64,000 bases of DNA from Salinivirgaceae bacterium (GCA_024405635.1 JAKSOL010000001.1:64001-128000); one strand, 5' to 3'. Shown: positions 3 to 6,067, counted from the stretch's first letter. Translations and numbers: made by a program. Notes: generated by a model from the letters alone, not told the origin.

Positions 3-1025
3 TACGGAATCGGCATAGAAGTTCATGATAGCGCGAGGAATAAAGATGTCTTTATTCCTATGAAGGGACTGGAAAAAAATCAGCCAATACCAGCGGTTGG
101 AATCCGAAACGGCCTGAAAACTTCACGTCAGATTCGCCCTGGCATGACTGCAGACAGATTAGTTATTCCTATTTATCAAGGCGAATATAACGCTGAAGGT
201 ACAAGTGCCATATACAACGACCATGTGTTTGACGTTGAGATAACTGGCGATGATGTCCCTGCGCTTGTTCCTGCCAATAGCGATATCGACATCACTATCA
301 AAGTGGACAAATCACAGGGAATGCTTCTTGAAACCACATTCCCAGTTATCGGAGAGACCGTTGAAAAAATCATTGAGGTTAAACAAAGAAGTGGTGTAGA
401 TGCCAATGACCTGTCTTCAAGAATACGAGAAGCAAAGAGCAAATTAAGGGGTCTTAAGTCAAGCGGGATATCGGCAAGCGAAACATCAGAAGCAGAAGCT
501 GCACTAAACGATGTCGAAAATCGTTTTGATGGAGAAAAAAATTCCGAAGACGGAAAGATGCATTTGCTTGCAGACTTACGTCGTGCATTCTTAAAAATAG
601 AAGAAGTTGAGAATGCACATGAATGGGAATCCATAGAGAATCAGCTACGTGAAGAATTTGACAAACTTGAAAAGGCTAATAACGACCTTGGAAACAAATA
701 TGATTCACAGGTAGAAGACCTTCGCAAGCAGACAGATATAGCTATACGTCAAAAGAATGCTGATATGGGACGTCAAGTATTGAGTGATATTCGATCTGTA
801 TTTGTAGGGGTTACACTTATCTATCAGCTTGTCGGCTTTGTCCGCCACTATAGTTCGGACTTTAATCAGTACAAATGGAAAGACGCAAGCCGAGCTCGTC
901 GGCTACTCAACCAAGGAATGCAAATTATAGGAAATAATCCTAACGAAGGTGAGTTGCATCCTCTTGTATGTCAAGTGATAGAGTTGCTTGATGAACCAGA
1001 AAGTGAGAAGTTGAAGATAGGATAA
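3..1025 (+). CDS. Non-canonical Hsp70 (DnaK-like) family protein, C-terminal part (5' end outside window)
   Basis: Frame is open from position 3 (YGIGIEVHDS...). IPIYQGE and DITIKVDKS segments resemble the Hsp70 substrate-binding beta domain, followed by a long helical tail unlike canonical DnaK. Confidence 0.75.
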   Translation, partial: YGIGIEVHDSARNKDVFIPMKGLEKNQPIPAVGIRNGLKTSRQIRPGMTADRLVIPIYQGEYNAEGTSAIYNDHVFDVEITGDDVPALVPANSDIDITIKVDKSQGMLLETTFPVIGETVEKIIEVKQRSGVDANDLSSRIREAKSKLRGLKSSGISASETSEAEAALNDVENRFDGEKNSEDGKMHLLADLRRAFLKIEEVENAHEWESIENQLREEFDKLEKANNDLGNKYDSQVEDLRKQTDIAIRQKNADMGRQVLSDIRSVFVGVTLIYQLVGFVRHYSSDFNQYKWKDASRARRLLNQGMQIIGNNPNEGELHPLVCQVIELLDEPESEKLKIG

Positions 1026-1027
1026 TT

Positions 1028-1648
1028 ATGGCATTTTCAATACAACATCCAATACGAAGAATGATTAATCAAGAGGCCGATTATATTCGGTCTCTGATTT
1101 GTCGTTTCCCAGAACAACAAAAAGACTGGATAGATAAAATAGATTCTGAATTCAAGAAATTAGCTCAAACGGAATTTCCTAATGAAAGCGATTCTGCTTA
1201 TCAAATGTATAGATCTTATTCATCAGCTGCCTTGGACTCTTGCGAACTTGAAAAAGACATGTTCTATAAGTCAATGTTCTTGATGACATATATCTATTAT
1301 GAAAGCGCATTGAAAAAAATATTCGCAAAATCGAATGTCAACAAGTCTCTAGAGTATTATATCTCAACAAATCATCTTGAGCTTAAACAAGCTACATATT
1401 CAGATTATGAATTCGTAAAAAAGTATGCCAAGGCTCTCCGTGATCACTTATGTCATAATGGCTACGGTGAAGAATACAAAGTAGAAAAAATCACAAGCAA
1501 GCTAGCTGACTACCCTGAAGTGTCAATCAACGAAGATGGAGTTGTGACTATAACTGATTCAAAATTTATTCTTGATGTTTTGGGAAAAGAACAAAACATT
1601 TTGAATGAAATCGCAGAACGGTTAGGTTTTAAAAATAAAATAATATGA
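1028..1648 (+). CDS. Hypothetical protein with HEPN-like RxxxxH motif (putative RNase)
   Basis: 206 aa, appears helical. YYE92 in an N-terminal helix and R138-DHLC-H143-N motif. Starts 2 nt after the Hsp70 stop. Confidence 0.6.
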   Translation: MAFSIQHPIRRMINQEADYIRSLICRFPEQQKDWIDKIDSEFKKLAQTEFPNESDSAYQMYRSYSSAALDSCELEKDMFYKSMFLMTYIYYESALKKIFAKSNVNKSLEYYISTNHLELKQATYSDYEFVKKYAKALRDHLCHNGYGEEYKVEKITSKLADYPEVSINEDGVVTITDSKFILDVLGKEQNILNEIAERLGFKNKII

Positions 1649-2746
1649 ACAATAGGATCAAAATAACAAAATGGGCTTCTATAGCTGGATTGACATTCGC
1701 AATAGCTATGCCAATACTCGCAAGAATTGTCGATGGAGAAATATTATCTGACAGTCTGAAATACGCGAAGGGATTTGTAGTGGGATTTTTGGTCTTATTT
1801 TGGAGTGGAATTCTCATCTACGTGATGATAAAATCCAGACACAAAAAAATAGCATCCTTGAATATTGATGCAGACAAGGAGTTTGTTGCTAGTAACGATA
1901 TTCTATTTTCAATTAAGAACAACTACGACAATGTTAAAGGCTTGTTCTCGTCAAATACTACCAATACAAGCAAGAATACATATCAATTAATAGTTGTAGC
2001 CACAATAATAGTTGCTTGTGTGTTTGATTATTTTTCGTTCGTAATAGGGCCTAAAGTCTTGAAATCCTACATATACGACTGCCAAGTTGAACGCCAGAAG
2101 GAACAAATCAATTTGATGAAGGAACTCGCATTTGAAGACATTACCCAAGCAGACTCAATTGCAAGAAAACTTTTCAAGAAGACATATGAAAAAGGTGTGA
2201 TTGTAAACTTATACAAAGACAAAGTCGGAGATTGGTATCATGAAAACTGGGATTTATGTAACAATGTCGCATTTCAGATATTGCGTAATGCAGCTGAAAA
2301 AGGGGAGCACCAGTCACAATTCACTCTTGGGTGTGTTTATGCGGGTGCGAAGTTAGACGACCTGGTTGCGGACCAAGATTGGGACGGCAGTATCACGATT
2401 ATGAAGGAACCTATCGACCGAGCAAGAGCAGCATATTGGTATAAACAAGTAGCGGAAGGTGGTAATGTCAAAGCTATGTGGAATCTTGCAGATGCATAAG
2501 TTAGAGGTATGGGAGTTCCTATGAATAAAGAGAAAGGGGTGGACTGGATAAAAAAAAGCGGCCAATATTGGCGAGAAAAAAAGTCAGAATTTTTTAGGTA
2601 ATCTATAAGAAATTGGTGTTAGGTCATCATATTATGATGACTGGCTTTTGCCACGTGATATTGAGCGCGCAAAATATTGGTGGAGAAAAGCAACAGAACA
2701 AGGTGATGAAGCTGCAAAAAAAAAAATGGAAAATATTTACGAATAA
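1645..2746 (+). pseudogene. Membrane-anchored Sel1-repeat protein, disrupted at its 3' end
   Basis: ORF 1645-2499 has about 3 TM segments and Sel1 motifs (QFTLGCVY, AAYWYKQVAEGGNVKA). Sel1 sequence continues past TAA 2497, a +1 shift in A8 (2550-2557) and TAA 2606 to ...AKYWWRKATEQGDEAAKKKMENIYE* at 2746. Confidence 0.75.
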
Positions 2747-2752
2747 ACTCCT

Positions 2753-4510
2753 ATGCTACCGAAAAAAGAACACATAGCAAACTACACAATAACCTTCCCT
2801 TGTAAGGAGGGTGCTTACGCTGAAACATACAGGGTAAAGGGTGCTGATGGTAAAAACTATTTCTTGAAACTTATCAATTGCTCAAAACTAAACCGAAGAC
2901 AATTTGATAACTGCGGGAATATAGTTGAAGTTGACATTGCAAAACAACTGCATCATGACAATATCACTTCATATCATGATAGCGGAGAGATAATATTGAA
3001 TAACAAGCGATATGCATACATTGTTTTCGACTTCATCAGTGGTGAGACTGTTGCGGAGAAGGTGACTCGCGAACAAAGATGTTCTGTATATGATGCTAAG
3101 CAAATTGTTCTTGGTGTTCTTAACGGATTAAAATATCTTCATTCGTTACAAAGACCTGTTATCCATAATGAACTGACCATACAAAATGTCATGCTTGACA
3201 TGACGAGCGGAATACCAGTAGCGAAGATGATTGACTTTGGTTATGCCAGATATATGGATATGGGTATCAGTGCATTTGACAAAGATGGGTTGAATCTATT
3301 CTACGTTGCCCCAGAAGCACTGAATGGCGATTATTCTGTTAGGTCGGATTTGTTTTCTGTAGGAGTTATGCTTTATCATCTCCTGTATGGAATGTTGCCA
3401 TATCACGTAGACTTATCTGATTGTTCCAACATGTCTGAAAAACTTGATGCAATATTAGAAGCAAGACAAAGACCATTGCGAATACCGGACATCGATATAT
3501 TTGAGCTTGACGAGCAACTGCTGAATATTATATCAAAAGCGTTATCAATAAATGTCGATGACAGATTCCAATCGGCAGACGAGTTCATAAAGGCTCTCAA
3601 TGGAGAAATTACGGTAGAGGTTAGCAAACGAGAAAGTCCAACACAAAGAATCACTAAAGAGCAACAACAAATCAATATAAAAAAAGGCAATGGGTTTGCT
3701 GATGTGGCAGGTATGACAGAGTTGAAGAACCAATTACAATCTGACGTTATTGATTTGCTCCAGGACCCAGAGCAGGCGAAGTCACTAGGGATATCCATTC
3801 CCAATGGTCTGCTATTTTACGGACCTCCAGGATGTGGGAAAACATTCTTTGCAGAAAAATTTGCAGAAGAGATTGGTTGCAATTATCAATATGTAAAATG
3901 CTCAGATATTGCATCTCCTTTCATTCATGGAGGGCAGGATAAGATTGCCGCAGTCTTCGACAACGCAAGAAAAAATGCGCCAACGATTCTATTCTTTGAT
4001 GAGATTGATGCCATGATAAAGGATAGGCGTAAGCAAAACAACGTCAGTGAAGCTGGCGAAGTAAATGAATTCTTGACACAGCTTAATAATTGTGGACATG
4101 ATGGCGTTCTTGTTATTGGTGCTACAAACAGGCCTGGCGAAATTGATGAAGCTGCACTACGTGCCGGTAGATTAGAATTGAAGTACTACATTCCATTACC
4201 CGACAAATCTACTCGAGAAAAGATGTTTGAAATTGAACTAAGTCATCGAAAGGTGGATTTTGGCATTGACTACGAGAAATTGGCAGAAATGACAGATGGA
4301 TACATTTCTGCTGATATCAGATTGATTGTTGACACTTCGGCAAGAATGGCATTTAGACAAAAAACTAAAATCACAGAACTTATGTTGATGGAGGCGATAA
4401 AAAACACTAAGCCTAGCTTGACGAAAGAATCTGTGGAGGAACACGAAAACATCAGAAGATATTTTGAAGGTGATGTTCCACAACAAACAAGGAAGAAAGT
4501 AGGATTTTAA
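2753..4510 (+). CDS. Ser/Thr protein kinase-like domain fused to a CDC48-type AAA+ ATPase
   Basis: Kinase motifs FLK, HNELTIQN, DFG, APE and SDLFSVG. AAA motifs GPPGCGKT (Walker A), FFDEID (Walker B) and ATNRPGEIDEAALRAGR (second region of homology). C-terminal KKVGF. Confidence 0.9.
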   Translation: MLPKKEHIANYTITFPCKEGAYAETYRVKGADGKNYFLKLINCSKLNRRQFDNCGNIVEVDIAKQLHHDNITSYHDSGEIILNNKRYAYIVFDFISGETVAEKVTREQRCSVYDAKQIVLGVLNGLKYLHSLQRPVIHNELTIQNVMLDMTSGIPVAKMIDFGYARYMDMGISAFDKDGLNLFYVAPEALNGDYSVRSDLFSVGVMLYHLLYGMLPYHVDLSDCSNMSEKLDAILEARQRPLRIPDIDIFELDEQLLNIISKALSINVDDRFQSADEFIKALNGEITVEVSKRESPTQRITKEQQQINIKKGNGFADVAGMTELKNQLQSDVIDLLQDPEQAKSLGISIPNGLLFYGPPGCGKTFFAEKFAEEIGCNYQYVKCSDIASPFIHGGQDKIAAVFDNARKNAPTILFFDEIDAMIKDRRKQNNVSEAGEVNEFLTQLNNCGHDGVLVIGATNRPGEIDEAALRAGRLELKYYIPLPDKSTREKMFEIELSHRKVDFGIDYEKLAEMTDGYISADIRLIVDTSARMAFRQKTKITELMLMEAIKNTKPSLTKESVEEHENIRRYFEGDVPQQTRKKVGF

Positions 4511-4521
4511 TACTAAAAAAC

Positions 4522-5013
4522 ATGGAAATAAATGAATTATATCTTAGGACTGCTTTTGCTTGCATGTCTAGTGACGGCGACATAGCAAAAGAAGAAGTTG
4601 CGCTCATAGAAAAAATGAATAATGAGGACCATCTTTTTGGCGATATCAATCTAACTCAAAGGTTAGAGGTGTTGCTTACAGAGATAAACGAACAAGGGTT
4701 GGGTTTCATGAAAAAATTCATAGACGAATTGTCAAAACAAAACCTATCCATCGAGGAAGAATTACAACTTCTAACAATAGCAGCAAAGACAATATATGCT
4801 GATAACAAAGTAGAATATAGCGAGGTGAAGTTTTTTAAGTTGATAAGATCTTGTCTTAAGAAAGTTGATAATCAAACTATCCTTAATTCAATCGAAGAAA
4901 TTGATGAAAATTGGGTAGAAGAAGATATTGTTTGCGATAATGATTTATTGTATGTTTCATATAGCAAAAATGTTGAGATGAAGCTTTTTGATTTGAGTGT
5001 AATAAATAATTAG
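4522..5013 (+). CDS. TerB-like (tellurite resistance family) protein
   Basis: Duplicated TerB signatures MSSDGDIAKEE and IYADNKVEYSE. Confidence 0.75.
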   Translation: MEINELYLRTAFACMSSDGDIAKEEVALIEKMNNEDHLFGDINLTQRLEVLLTEINEQGLGFMKKFIDELSKQNLSIEEELQLLTIAAKTIYADNKVEYSEVKFFKLIRSCLKKVDNQTILNSIEEIDENWVEEDIVCDNDLLYVSYSKNVEMKLFDLSVINN

Positions 5014-5034
5014 AGCGCTACTTGACATCTCTCA

Positions 5035-5061
5035 ACTCATTATTAAATGAGTGATTTTTTT
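5035..5061 (+). terminator. Probable intrinsic terminator at the end of the accessory operon
   Basis: actcat-tattaa-atgagt hairpin followed by a T run. Confidence 0.5.
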
Positions 5062-5067
5062 ATTAAT

Positions 5068-5763
5068 TTACTTCACTTTAAGCGATTTAAGTAGTTCCTT
5101 TTGTTCGGGTGTAATTCGGTAGCTTTCAATTGCTTTTTGTATCGATTTGTTGTGAACCCAAACAGGCAGTTTTTGGCTTGTAATGATTGGCAAGGTTGAA
5201 TCCCATTGTTTGGCTAAAGCTGTTGCAAAGTACCAAGCTTGAGCCATTTGTACGTAGAATTCGGTGTTGGAAACAGCAACAACGCGTTGTAAGTATTCGG
5301 GCTTAAACACTGGCGCATCAAGATAAAAATCCATAAGCATAACAATGCCAAAGCGAACCGAGTAAGTATGCTCCGAGTGTAGCCAACAATCAATATGTTG
5401 AATAAAATGGTTGGTGTTGCGCTTAATAACTTTTGGCGATAGACTGTCGCAAACTGCCCAATTATCGATGTATGGTACCCAGCGCTCAAGTTCGTTAACC
5501 ACGGTTTGGTAGTCTTTGCAACAACATATTAGATAGTCGTGCAGCATGTTTTCTTCGTGAAATGAGTGGGGCAGTTGTTGCATAAAAGCCAAAGACTCGT
5601 TTGTGCCTGCAAGTTGTTTTGCCAATGTGCGAATGTCGGGATTGCGAACGCCAATGAACAACTCGGTTGGCAGTTTTATAATTTTTGCTTGAAATTGCCG
5701 AAATGCAGCAAGTTTTTGTGTGTCGGAGTCGCAAAGCGCACGTAGTTGGTCAATTATTTCCAT
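5068..5763 (-). CDS. DNA alkylation repair protein (AlkD-like HEAT-repeat family)
   Basis: IGVRNPDIR, IDNWAVCD and YVQMAQAWYFATALAKQWD motifs. ATG at 5763 lies just after the upstream stop. Confidence 0.85.
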   Translation of the reverse strand: MEIIDQLRALCDSDTQKLAAFRQFQAKIIKLPTELFIGVRNPDIRTLAKQLAGTNESLAFMQQLPHSFHEENMLHDYLICCCKDYQTVVNELERWVPYIDNWAVCDSLSPKVIKRNTNHFIQHIDCWLHSEHTYSVRFGIVMLMDFYLDAPVFKPEYLQRVVAVSNTEFYVQMAQAWYFATALAKQWDSTLPIITSQKLPVWVHNKSIQKAIESYRITPEQKELLKSLKVK

Positions 5764-5764
5764 T

Positions 5765-6067
5765 TTATTCAATTGTTTCAATTAAAAAACTAACAGGGCG
5801 AAAACCATCGTTACACGAAATCATTGCCGAATGTGGATTTTGCATCCAACCGTTGTAAAAATTGCCGCCACCGATGGCCAATTCGGTAACAAATTCAACC
5901 ATCGATTGCCATGCGCTGTCGCACATGTTGGTTGGGCGTTGGGCATTGTGGCTTATAAAAGTTTGACCTAACACCATGTCGCATGTGTGTTCAATTGGGT
6001 TTTCGTATTGGGCCATTAAGTCGCTATAGTTGGCCATTCGCATTACTGTAATTCGTACGTCTTTCAT
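5765..6067 (-). CDS. TIGR04076 family protein
   Basis: CDSAW and ISCNDGFRPVSF motifs. Confidence 0.8.
   Translation of the reverse strand: MKDVRITVMRMANYSDLMAQYENPIEHTCDMVLGQTFISHNAQRPTNMCDSAWQSMVEFVTELAIGGGNFYNGWMQNPHSAMISCNDGFRPVSFLIETIE

Follow-up and report, generated by a model that had tools for sequence, protein, structure and literature searches.

A patchily distributed five-gene module centered on a private Hsp70 in Bacteroidota, and its copy with HEPN and Sel1-like cargo in a Salinivirgaceae bacterium

A 64,000-nucleotide (nt) stretch of the genome of a Salinivirgaceae bacterium (GCA_024405635.1, JAKSOL010000001.1:64001-128000; G000:C1:64001-128000 in our numbering), the whole of which is referred to here as the window, begins with the 3′ two-thirds of an approximately 9-kb operon of seven genes, which we named A to G from 5′ to 3′. 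Five of them, A, B, C, F, and G, are a horizontally mobile, patchily distributed, and so far unnamed module. It includes an atypical Hsp70 (C), a fusion of a Ser/Thr-kinase-like domain and an AAA+ domain (F), a predicted TerB-like protein (G), and two candidate co-chaperones (A and B). The two remaining genes, D, coding for a predicted HEPN RNase, and E, a broken gene for a membrane protein with Sel1-like repeats, are cargo of a variable slot located between C and F.

All 15 related loci with enough flanking sequence show the same arrangement, A-B-C-[slot]-F-G. Among close relatives, for which one genome per species was scanned, 12 loci include a full-length relative of F (52-67% identity). 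Tblastn analysis with all seven proteins found A, B, C, F, and G in this order in nine of nine long contigs, and three short contigs agree as far as they reach. A sample of 400 other genomes of the same taxonomic order included a full-length F in seven (E ≤ 1e-141), a weak match in one, and relatives consisting of the AAA part only in three; the five-gene core was present in all five of the loci that could be extended. When 400 other genomes of the phylum were sampled an F match was found in six, and five of these loci were fetched: G follows F in all five, and in four of them an Hsp70 gene precedes F within 1.5 kb. A full-length F was found in none of the 32 other genomes of the family. One of 72,556 plasmids searched, pHALHY02 from Haliscomenobacter hydrossis, which belongs to another class of Bacteroidota, carries the module with its order kept, so that the core order is conserved down to protein identities of 26-49%. 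No phage record covers 80% or more of F, and 25 match the AAA part only. Besides Haliscomenobacter, the cultured hosts of the module include Bacteroides, Parabacteroides, and Sodaliphilus. An initial annotation of this stretch, made from the sequence alone, had called for a survey to see whether Hsp70 and TerB form a conserved core around a middle slot of varying content, and this architecture was exactly borne out; the alternative it named, a vertically conserved piece of core genome, is contradicted by the frequencies of 0/32, 7/400, and 6/400 at the family, order, and phylum levels.

The slot between C and F ranges in length from 26 nt to 1.7 kb. Its contents include a CpXC zinc-ribbon protein with a C-terminal transmembrane (TM) segment, a TM protein with YfiO/TPR-like repeats, and other TM proteins; it is empty in the loci L005, L010, and L011 and on pHALHY02. 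D and E are found in none of the 15 related loci. In these loci A, B, C, F, and G co-occur and the HEPN and Sel1 genes do not join them, and we consider D and E as cargo of this slot.

The whole unit comprises seven genes in 8.9 kb, all on the + strand, with the start of A located 3.9 kb upstream of the window and the last five genes inside it. To describe its 5′ part, which had correctly been placed outside the window, 12 kb of upstream sequence were fetched (L002; window coordinate = L002 coordinate minus 12000), and they revealed an Hsp70 gene for 833 amino acids preceded by two further operon genes. The open reading frames (ORFs) in the window are five and co-oriented as first described, with coordinates 3-1025 (5′-open), 1028-1648, 1645-2499, 2753-4510, and 4522-5013, and the gaps between them are +2, -4, 253, and +11 nt. 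The initially reported range of -4 to 11 nt holds only if E is read through its lesions to the stop codon at 2744-2746, which leaves a gap of 6 nt before F; otherwise the value of 253 nt stands. The A/B and B/C gaps are 4 and 5 nt, respectively, and of the seven genes only E lacks an intact reading frame. A hairpin followed by a T7 run (5035-5061, + strand) lies between the operon and a converging DNA-alkylation-repair gene (5068-5781, - strand). This structure, a 7-bp A/U-rich stem at 5035-5052 with T7 at 5055-5061, is present as annotated, though weak: its centroid energy is -6.3 kcal/mol, a 71-nt piece folds no better than shuffled versions (z -0.58), and a terminator scan that requires three G-C pairs did not list it. 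Contigs from an RNA-library run (X7) fall on parts of 2627-4442, some of them diverged, and as contigs they are no readout of transcription, strand, or operon structure.

Gene C (G000:C1:62524-65025, equivalent to L002 10524-13025) codes for an 833-amino acid Hsp70, the last 340 codons of which occupy positions 1-1025 of the window. Residues 9-378 match the Pfam family HSP70 (PF00012) with an E value of 8e-67 and a score of 226 bits, the cut-off being 20.6. Across 18 homologs there is no or almost no variation in the ATPase motifs GIDLGTTNS, EP, DFGGGTFD, and LVGGPT. Canonical DnaK, GrpE, and DnaJ are encoded elsewhere in the genome, the true DnaK on contig C21, and C is therefore an extra, private Hsp70. 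C itself does not qualify as a canonical DnaK by the NCBIfam equivalog model TIGR02350: it scores 246 bits, far below the cut-off of 822, and the match is limited to residues 9-414. A prediction of the complex between the nucleotide-binding domain of C (residues 1-390) and two copies of residues 155-315 of B gave a score of 0.05 against a mark of 0.32, a result that weighs neither way.

Gene F (2753-4510) encodes a 585-amino acid fusion protein consisting of a Ser/Thr-kinase-like domain (residues 19-273 approximately) and a AAA+ domain of the classic clade (residues 353-540 approximately). Both halves have strong Pfam matches, Pkinase (PF00069) with 4.6e-33 and 115 bits against a cut-off of 31.7, and AAA (PF00004) with 4.2e-34 and 118 bits. 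In the AAA+ half, which looks active, the Walker A sequence GPPGCGKT is found in 18 of 18 homologs, the DE pair of Walker B in 17, and LRAGR-type arginine-finger motifs are conserved; FtsH, CDC48, and PAN come closest among the NCBIfam models, although the cut-off is not reached for any of the three. The kinase-like half retains the beta-3 Lys and the alpha-C Glu, and DFG is present in 17 of the 18 homologs. The protein ends in RKKVGF, and an [IVL]G[FY] tripeptide is located at the C-terminus or a few residues from it in 17 of 18 homologs (window 4493-4510 for the tail of F). The AAA-only relatives of F (L015 9188-10828, L017 9410-10846, and L101 9772-10791 and 10978-12852) also end in a tail of this type, namely IGFC, IGFR, or IGFQ. 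A [LIV]-G-[FL] tripeptide docks ClpX and ClpA on ClpP. Since the tail is conserved and clpP is found inside the operon in two loci, L007 and L014, these features suggest that F may hand over substrates to ClpP. With respect to the ClpX/ClpA docking tripeptide, that of F differs in being at or near the C-terminus instead of in an internal loop, and in belonging to a protein of the classic AAA clade (FtsH/CDC48-like). The housekeeping clpP of this genome (G000:C35:66862-67515) adjoins the genes for trigger factor and ClpX, and the presumed ClpP-docking tripeptide in the loop of that ClpX is VGY, not IGF.

The last gene, G (4522-5013), codes for a 163-amino acid protein that had no Pfam match (0 families at E ≤ 0.01, TerB PF05099 included), and its assignment as a TerB-like fold is a prediction from profile and structural comparisons. 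A profile built from 12 homologs had as its best PDB match 2h5n (E 0.056), which we take to be a member of the TerB-like superfamily. Foldseek likewise placed 2h5n on top with a weak match (probability 0.89), and in an exhaustive fold search against 48,161 chains the first two ranks were 2ou3 (Z 7.9), a tellurite resistance protein of COG3793, and 2h5n (Z 6.6), values that are modest for a helical protein. The ortholog on the plasmid is named ‘TerB family tellurite resistance protein’ by RefSeq.

The two genes that open the operon encode candidate co-chaperones, J-like in the case of A and GrpE-like in the case of B, neither of which is established. Gene A (L002 8106-9566, 486 amino acids, outside the window) combines a J-like N-terminus with a C-terminal TM segment. 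The N-terminal domain is strongly conserved in the family (N8, P9, R11, L13, G14, N18, N27, F43, and D46), and its sequence pattern resembles helices I and II of the J domain, with FPxD, including the invariant F43 and D46, where HPD is expected. When aligned with 29 J domains it obtained a column-permutation z value of 4.95, with FPxD aligned to HPD and none of 300 permutations reaching the observed score; the best PDB profile match, 2cug (E 0.74), is aligned on the stretch of J-domain-type helices I and II. An atlas search with residues 1-100 retrieved unnamed clusters only and no DnaJ family. Gene B (L002 9571-10518, 315 amino acids, also outside the window) specifies a bitopic protein in which a coiled coil lies between a signal or TM segment and a TM segment; on visual inspection, its conserved C-terminal domain resembles the C-terminus of GrpE. 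Compared with 29 GrpE sequences this domain gave a z value of 6.9 (0/300 permutations) and an observed score of 32.8 versus 27.7 for a reversed-sequence control. These permutation tests preserve the relatedness within the query family, and in both of them the similarity exceeds that expected by chance. Both families are large, with 2,357 proteins for B and at least 999 for A in a database clustered at 90%, and among the 120 best matches listed for each, every named one is a ‘hypothetical protein’. Some forms of A are longer, carry YfiO/TPR-like repeats, and end in a tail to which RefSeq, in the case of the plasmid ortholog, gives the name CFI-box-CTERM, and A paralogs are duplicated in L003, L010, and L014. 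A hydrophobic C-terminal tail with a cysteine (G-C-[WILY] followed by a TM segment) is common to A proteins (L002 9500-9566 for the A described here) and several slot proteins (ORFs L003 9130-9648, L006 477-1097, L007 7736-8356, and L014 9448-9984), and it may represent a common sorting or recognition signal.

Of the two cargo genes, D (1028-1648) codes for a 206-amino acid protein with no TM segment that is predicted, from conserved residues and a structural model, to be a HEPN-domain RNase with an intact R-x4-H site. D matched 0 Pfam families, a word-based homolog search retrieved D itself only, and Foldseek against the PDB gave nothing significant, with the HEPN protein 2hsb at rank 47. An exhaustive phmmer search identified 77 homologs. 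Only three residues, R138, H143, and L192, do not vary across the 52 relatives that were aligned, and the position after R138 is N in at least 90% of the sequences and D in the protein described here. In the model, the R-x4-H motif is located at the end of the helix formed by residues 121-142 (pLDDT 94). This arrangement agrees with the HEPN RNase signature as given in portions of PMC3710099, R-x4-6-H with a polar residue after the R at the end of a helix. Curated HEPN models matched members of the same set of 52, PF18735 (HEPN_RiboL-PSP) in ten cases, PF18730 in two, and PF18737 in one, and one homolog is fused to SIR2_2. Comparison of the model with the 48,161 solved chains placed HEPN proteins at all of ranks 1 to 10 (Z 8.4-6.9), headed by 7ae2 (8.4), 2hsb (8.1), 5yep (8.1), and the Csm6 structure 6tug (8.0).

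Gene E (1645-2746) is a broken membrane-protein gene that begins with hydrophobic segments followed by Sel1-like repeats. Its open frame, 1645-2499, codes for 284 amino acids and is followed by a decayed tail that ends at the stop codon 2744-2746. Three lesions were identified: a TAA at 2497-2499 is in frame, the frame changes within an A8 run (2550-2557), and another TAA follows at 2606-2608. Run X3, which belongs to a different study, includes a contig that spans 1854-4225 and has nine differences and one indel, none of them at the three lesions; as this independent contig carries the lesions too, they are not an assembly artifact. The Pfam Sel1 model (PF08238) has a cut-off of 30.7 bits, and both parts of E score below it, the tail piece 2609-2743 with 25.6 bits (E 1.7e-5) and the open frame with 15.2. 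Four of the five domain calls of the initial annotation, Hsp70, HEPN, kinase-AAA, and TerB-like, stand, and the fifth, Sel1, is weakly supported. In run X4 (window positions 1000-4884), a strain 90-95% identical also has D and E; in its contig 133 different letters take the place of the segment 2499-2632, where two of the three lesions lie next to the first stop, and E may be intact in that strain. An A11 run at 2716-2726, in the decayed tail and 27 nt before the start of F, is two letters shorter in run X2 and one letter shorter in X3, a variation that could be due to slippage or to a homopolymer assembly effect. Parts that were not covered in a sequencing run were left uninterpreted.

Defense genes were mapped beside five of the 15 related loci: AbiEii in L012, GmrSD and putAbiC in L013, the type I protein HsdM in L097, GmrSD in L099, and BREX with a McrBC-like pair on pHALHY02 (L168). 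Mobile-element genes or a plasmid setting were found in six of the 15, IS66 in both L003 and L008, an integrase in L013, a fragment of an ISL3 transposase in L098, and a relaxase with a T4 coupling protein in L014, in addition to the plasmid. Defense and mobile-element neighbors are thus present at several related loci, in support of the initial interpretation. PADLOC tallies of the flanks as a whole, made with no assignment to individual loci, also include pAgo/SIR2-type, PDC-S11, DpdF, and type IIG genes, and Schlafen/AlbA_2 genes are found in three loci. Recurrent extras beside the core are TPR and aspartyl-protease lipoproteins, DUF6804 membrane proteins, and further TerB proteins; separate neighbor genes in L007 match TerB PF05099 with an E value of 6.1e-7. 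An additional gene, tubulin-like (Pfam Tubulin_2), is located in L098 (13880-15682), 1.6 kb downstream of the module and beside the ISL3 fragment; DO-GTPase conflict systems that combine tubulin and HSP70 are described in sections of PMC7159879.

The codon usage of the operon looks foreign with respect to one codon. In the operon, 30 of the 93 Arg codons of the seven genes are AGA, compared with 3 of 94 in seven flanking genes; the corresponding values are 100/249 and 32/151 for ATA and 45/149 and 29/170 for GGA. The claim that the style of these three codons differs from that of the flanking genes is therefore correct as a local comparison; relative to 1,094 long ORFs of the genome, AGA is the only unusual one (top 5.9% when pooled, top 1.4% for F), ATA and GGA being in the top 17% and 35%, respectively.

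Neither PADLOC nor the literature yielded a named system with this composition, as had been supposed from the start. At the domain level only, the halves of F resemble IetA (3e-33, AAA+ half), mad6 (3.2e-38) of MADS, and PD-T4-6 (2.9e-35, kinase half); the module differs from IetAS and MADS in having no IetS protease or methylation genes, in the fusion of the two domains, and in the HNE loop. The other PADLOC matches were those of the 340-amino acid Hsp70 fragment to LeoBC (E 0.0033), of A to Aga_TIR-PNTD1-PNTD2 (E 0.0074, sub-threshold), and of the B coiled coil to LmuB. DjlA is a protein that combines a TerB and a J domain. The enterobacterial DjlA-DnaK-Rcs pathway, to the extent covered in excerpts of PMC11709261, resembles the module, in which A is a J-like candidate and F is kinase-like, in bringing together a membrane J-type protein, a TerB-type domain, an Hsp70, and a kinase at the inner membrane. 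DjlA works with the housekeeping DnaK and has a canonical HPD-containing J domain fused to TerB, whereas the module has a separate TerB-like protein, a private Hsp70, an FPxD motif, and a kinase-like domain fused to AAA+. The anti-phage system Shango consists of a TerB-domain protein, an ATPase, and a helicase. Like the module, it has a TerB-type protein in a multi-gene, ATPase-containing system of defense islands; the module lacks a helicase, its AAA+ protein is not a Shango-type ATPase, and none of the seven proteins matches the PADLOC Shango model. TerB is mentioned in 10.1101/2022.05.11.491447 and PMC10250203.

The predicted GAP1-N2 GTPase conflict systems carry private HSP70, GrpE, and DnaJ-fused proteins (Kaur, Burroughs, Iyer, and Aravind 2020, PMC7159879, in part), and they share with the module a dedicated Hsp70 in a predicted, patchy conflict operon, together with an exchange factor and a J-type partner, for which B and A are the candidates in the module; some variants also include protein kinases and TPR proteins. 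As far as those portions of the article extend, these systems differ in having a core of GAP1-N2 GTPases and FNIII repeats and in being distributed mostly in Actinobacteria and Firmicutes, whereas the module is found in Bacteroidota. No GTPase domain, and hence no TRAFAC GTPase of the GAP1-N2 type, was detected in any of the seven proteins with Pfam and NCBIfam. The core of the module includes instead the kinase-like AAA+ fusion and TerB, and its J-like and GrpE-like parts have diverged beyond what Pfam recognizes. In type III CoCoNuTs, according to extracts of PMC11090510, the Hsp70-like CnuD occurs together with HEPN RNases in a predicted defense operon, which is the feature shared with our locus. 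CoCoNuTs are, in the same extracts, McrBC-derived GTPase systems with degenerate ATPase motifs in the Hsp70-like protein, while the module has no McrB or McrC, intact motifs, and HEPN as an optional gene. A search of full-text literature found no description of this gene set, with the provisos that the supplementary neighborhood tables of PMC7159879 and PMC11090510 could list the architecture and that the search excludes the 2012 Ter-system paper of Anantharaman and colleagues, which may discuss TerB-chaperone contexts.

We give about even chances to the proposal that the module is a mobile, membrane-linked conflict system, anti-phage or anti-mobile-element, in which the private Hsp70 acts as the gate. 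The gene content and order are established, as are their conservation and patchiness, the neighborhoods, and the motifs, and from them we infer the functional steps as follows. A and B would tether the Hsp70 to the inner membrane and promote its cycle, and the Hsp70 would keep F or a cargo protein in check. Infection-derived or damaged proteins might occupy the chaperone, or TerB and the membrane parts might register envelope damage, with either event freeing F. The freed protein could then remodel its targets or unfold them, perhaps for delivery to ClpP, and toxins carried in the slot, for instance the HEPN protein, would be let loose and lead to a growth stop of the infected cell. The features in support of a conflict system are the gene order, the variable slot, the patchiness, the defense and mobile neighbors, the HEPN cargo, the private chaperone, the candidate co-chaperones A and B, the tail of F, the AGA usage, and the precedents of predicted conflict systems with a private Hsp70 (PMC7159879) and of CnuD in CoCoNuTs (PMC11090510). 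Two roles proposed in the initial annotation need to be revised. HEPN is not the general effector of the system, because three contig loci and the plasmid copy have no gene in the slot and D is absent from the 15 related loci. That Sel1 acts as a sensor cannot be general either, because E is broken here; it is missing from the same 15 loci. A more specific version, which we judge rather unlikely, is that the private, membrane-tethered Hsp70 cycle would be the infection sensor itself, either because phage proteins titrate the chaperone or because TerB reads out envelope damage, its output being a nucleotide-gated pseudokinase-AAA+ unfoldase that plugs into the ClpP of the host by its IGF-type C-terminal tail and is accompanied by a dedicated slot for exchangeable toxins such as HEPN. 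If true, it would represent a new bacterial immune class, a prokaryotic analogue of chaperone-guarded immune receptors.

Several observations weigh against a conflict system or against individual steps of this mechanism. Envelope-stress responses are an equally natural setting for TerB, DjlA-type J proteins, and Hsp70. The seven proteins fit none of the system models of PADLOC v2, and the full-length Hsp70, D, E, and G match 0 of its families; the loci with an empty slot, three contigs and the plasmid, do not identify a core effector. The kinase-like domain of F is non-RD, with a catalytic loop that reads HNE in 15 of 18 homologs, HND in two, and HNN in one instead of HRD, and it may be a pseudokinase, so that kinase catalysis is uncertain. 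As for the candidate co-chaperones, the HPD tripeptide is absent from the A family, A has no Pfam J domain match (PF00226) at E ≤ 0.1, and the hhalign probability is 16.7%. B has no Pfam GrpE match (PF01025) at E ≤ 0.1, the genome scan being silent at B even at E ≤ 10; hhalign probabilities with GrpE were 0.4% and 1.3%, and GrpE is absent among its PDB profile matches. The enrichment in defense and mobile genes that the neighborhoods suggest is expressed in raw counts, with 30 of the 122 flank ORFs of the 15 loci scanned individually and the rest as tallies only. The flanks of the operon described here are housekeeping genes (PFOR, DNA-alkylation repair, and YjbR), as are the scanned flanks of L004 and L010. 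Finally, the operon has a GC content of 38.4% versus 40.3% for the genome, which is the 16th percentile of 9-kb windows and not an outlier.

The main rival is a mobile module for membrane proteostasis or envelope stress, in which Hsp70, the co-chaperones, and the AAA+ protein would extract damaged membrane proteins and refold or degrade them while TerB and the kinase-like domain tune the process, as in DjlA-DnaK signaling to Rcs. We regard this as possible, if somewhat improbable. With the exception of F and G, every part of the core either has TM segments or is predicted to be anchored to such segments, the combination of an Hsp70 and a AAA+ unfoldase follows the logic of a disaggregase pair, and clpP is part of two loci. 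The recurrent neighbors of the module include TPR/aspartyl-protease lipoproteins and membrane proteins of the DUF6804 type, the housekeeping flanks here and in L004 and L010 fit with it, and DjlA, TerB, Hsp70, and Rcs are linked in excerpts of PMC11709261. However, a scattered prevalence of 1.5-2% would be unusual for a general stress function, the HEPN cargo family includes a SIR2 fusion, and BREX, GmrSD, AbiE, and type I restriction-modification genes are adjacent to the module. Furthermore, the genome already encodes DnaK, DnaJ, GrpE, ClpX, and ClpP.

The cysteine-containing TM tail shared by A and the slot proteins of L003, L006, L007, and L014 brings up a different possibility, that of a cargo-handling machine in which Hsp70 and the AAA+ protein serve for the insertion, extraction, or activation of the slot-encoded membrane proteins, tail-anchored or with TPR/Sel1 repeats, and of the long C-terminal extensions of A. 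The slot proteins would then be the real output, for example as surface or inter-bacterial factors. The long A forms with YfiO/TPR-like repeats and a tail named CFI-box-CTERM, as well as the duplication of A paralogs in L003, L010, and L014, point in the same direction. The slot is nevertheless empty in L005, L010, L011, and the plasmid, the HEPN cargo found here has no TM segment, and the kinase-like domain and TerB are left unexplained, for which reasons we consider this machine decidedly unlikely. It is extremely improbable that there is no system at all, that is, that the genes are chance neighbors on the same strand or, in this genome, a functionless decaying remnant. The three lesions in E and the weak terminal hairpin would be expected of such a remnant, but the conservation of the order at 26-49% identity in another class contradicts it, the six genes other than E have uninterrupted frames and intact motifs, and the intact genes are separated by -4 to 11 nt.

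The module provides one private Hsp70 with a defined and conserved set of partners, within a group of bacterial DnaK derivatives that are largely unexplored according to parts of a 2026 review (PMC13580251). It is abundant in gut metagenomes, and the existence of cultured hosts makes direct testing possible. Should it be a defense system, it would add chaperone-based sensing and a kinase-AAA+ executor to the anti-phage biology of the dominant gut phylum; should it be a stress module, it would constitute a new, horizontally spreading machine for membrane proteostasis.

Additional observations were made on variants of the module and on the surroundings of the operon. L006 and L007, labelled Butyricicoccaceae and Anaerotignum, respectively, and thus Bacillota bins, carry the module with an F that is 65% identical and with near-identical slot genes; this placement is either a cross-phylum transfer or the product of mis-binned Bacteroidales contigs. 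A divergent variant in L102 (599-7987) includes a short B-like gene, an Hsp70 with 29% identity, an A-like gene whose N-terminus is closer to a J domain, two TM proteins, a kinase-less AAA+ protein, and a DUF6804-like protein, and has no TerB. Upstream of the operon there is a PFOR gene with its terminator. PFOR orthologs were found in 29 of the 32 family genomes, and the 1.5-kb flanks of 26 of these loci include neither the genes downstream of the locus nor A; the synteny is too eroded for the PFOR loci to define an insertion site. A scan with a sigma-70 promoter model, which is not designed for Bacteroidota, gave no excess of sites over shuffled sequences, and an Rfam scan of the 900 nt upstream of A gave chance-level matches only. 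The approximately 700 nt between the PFOR terminator and A (L002 7410-8105) have a GC content of 37% and no long sense ORF, and a 211-amino acid antisense ORF with no Pfam match (L002 7922-8557) that overlaps the start of A is probably spurious.

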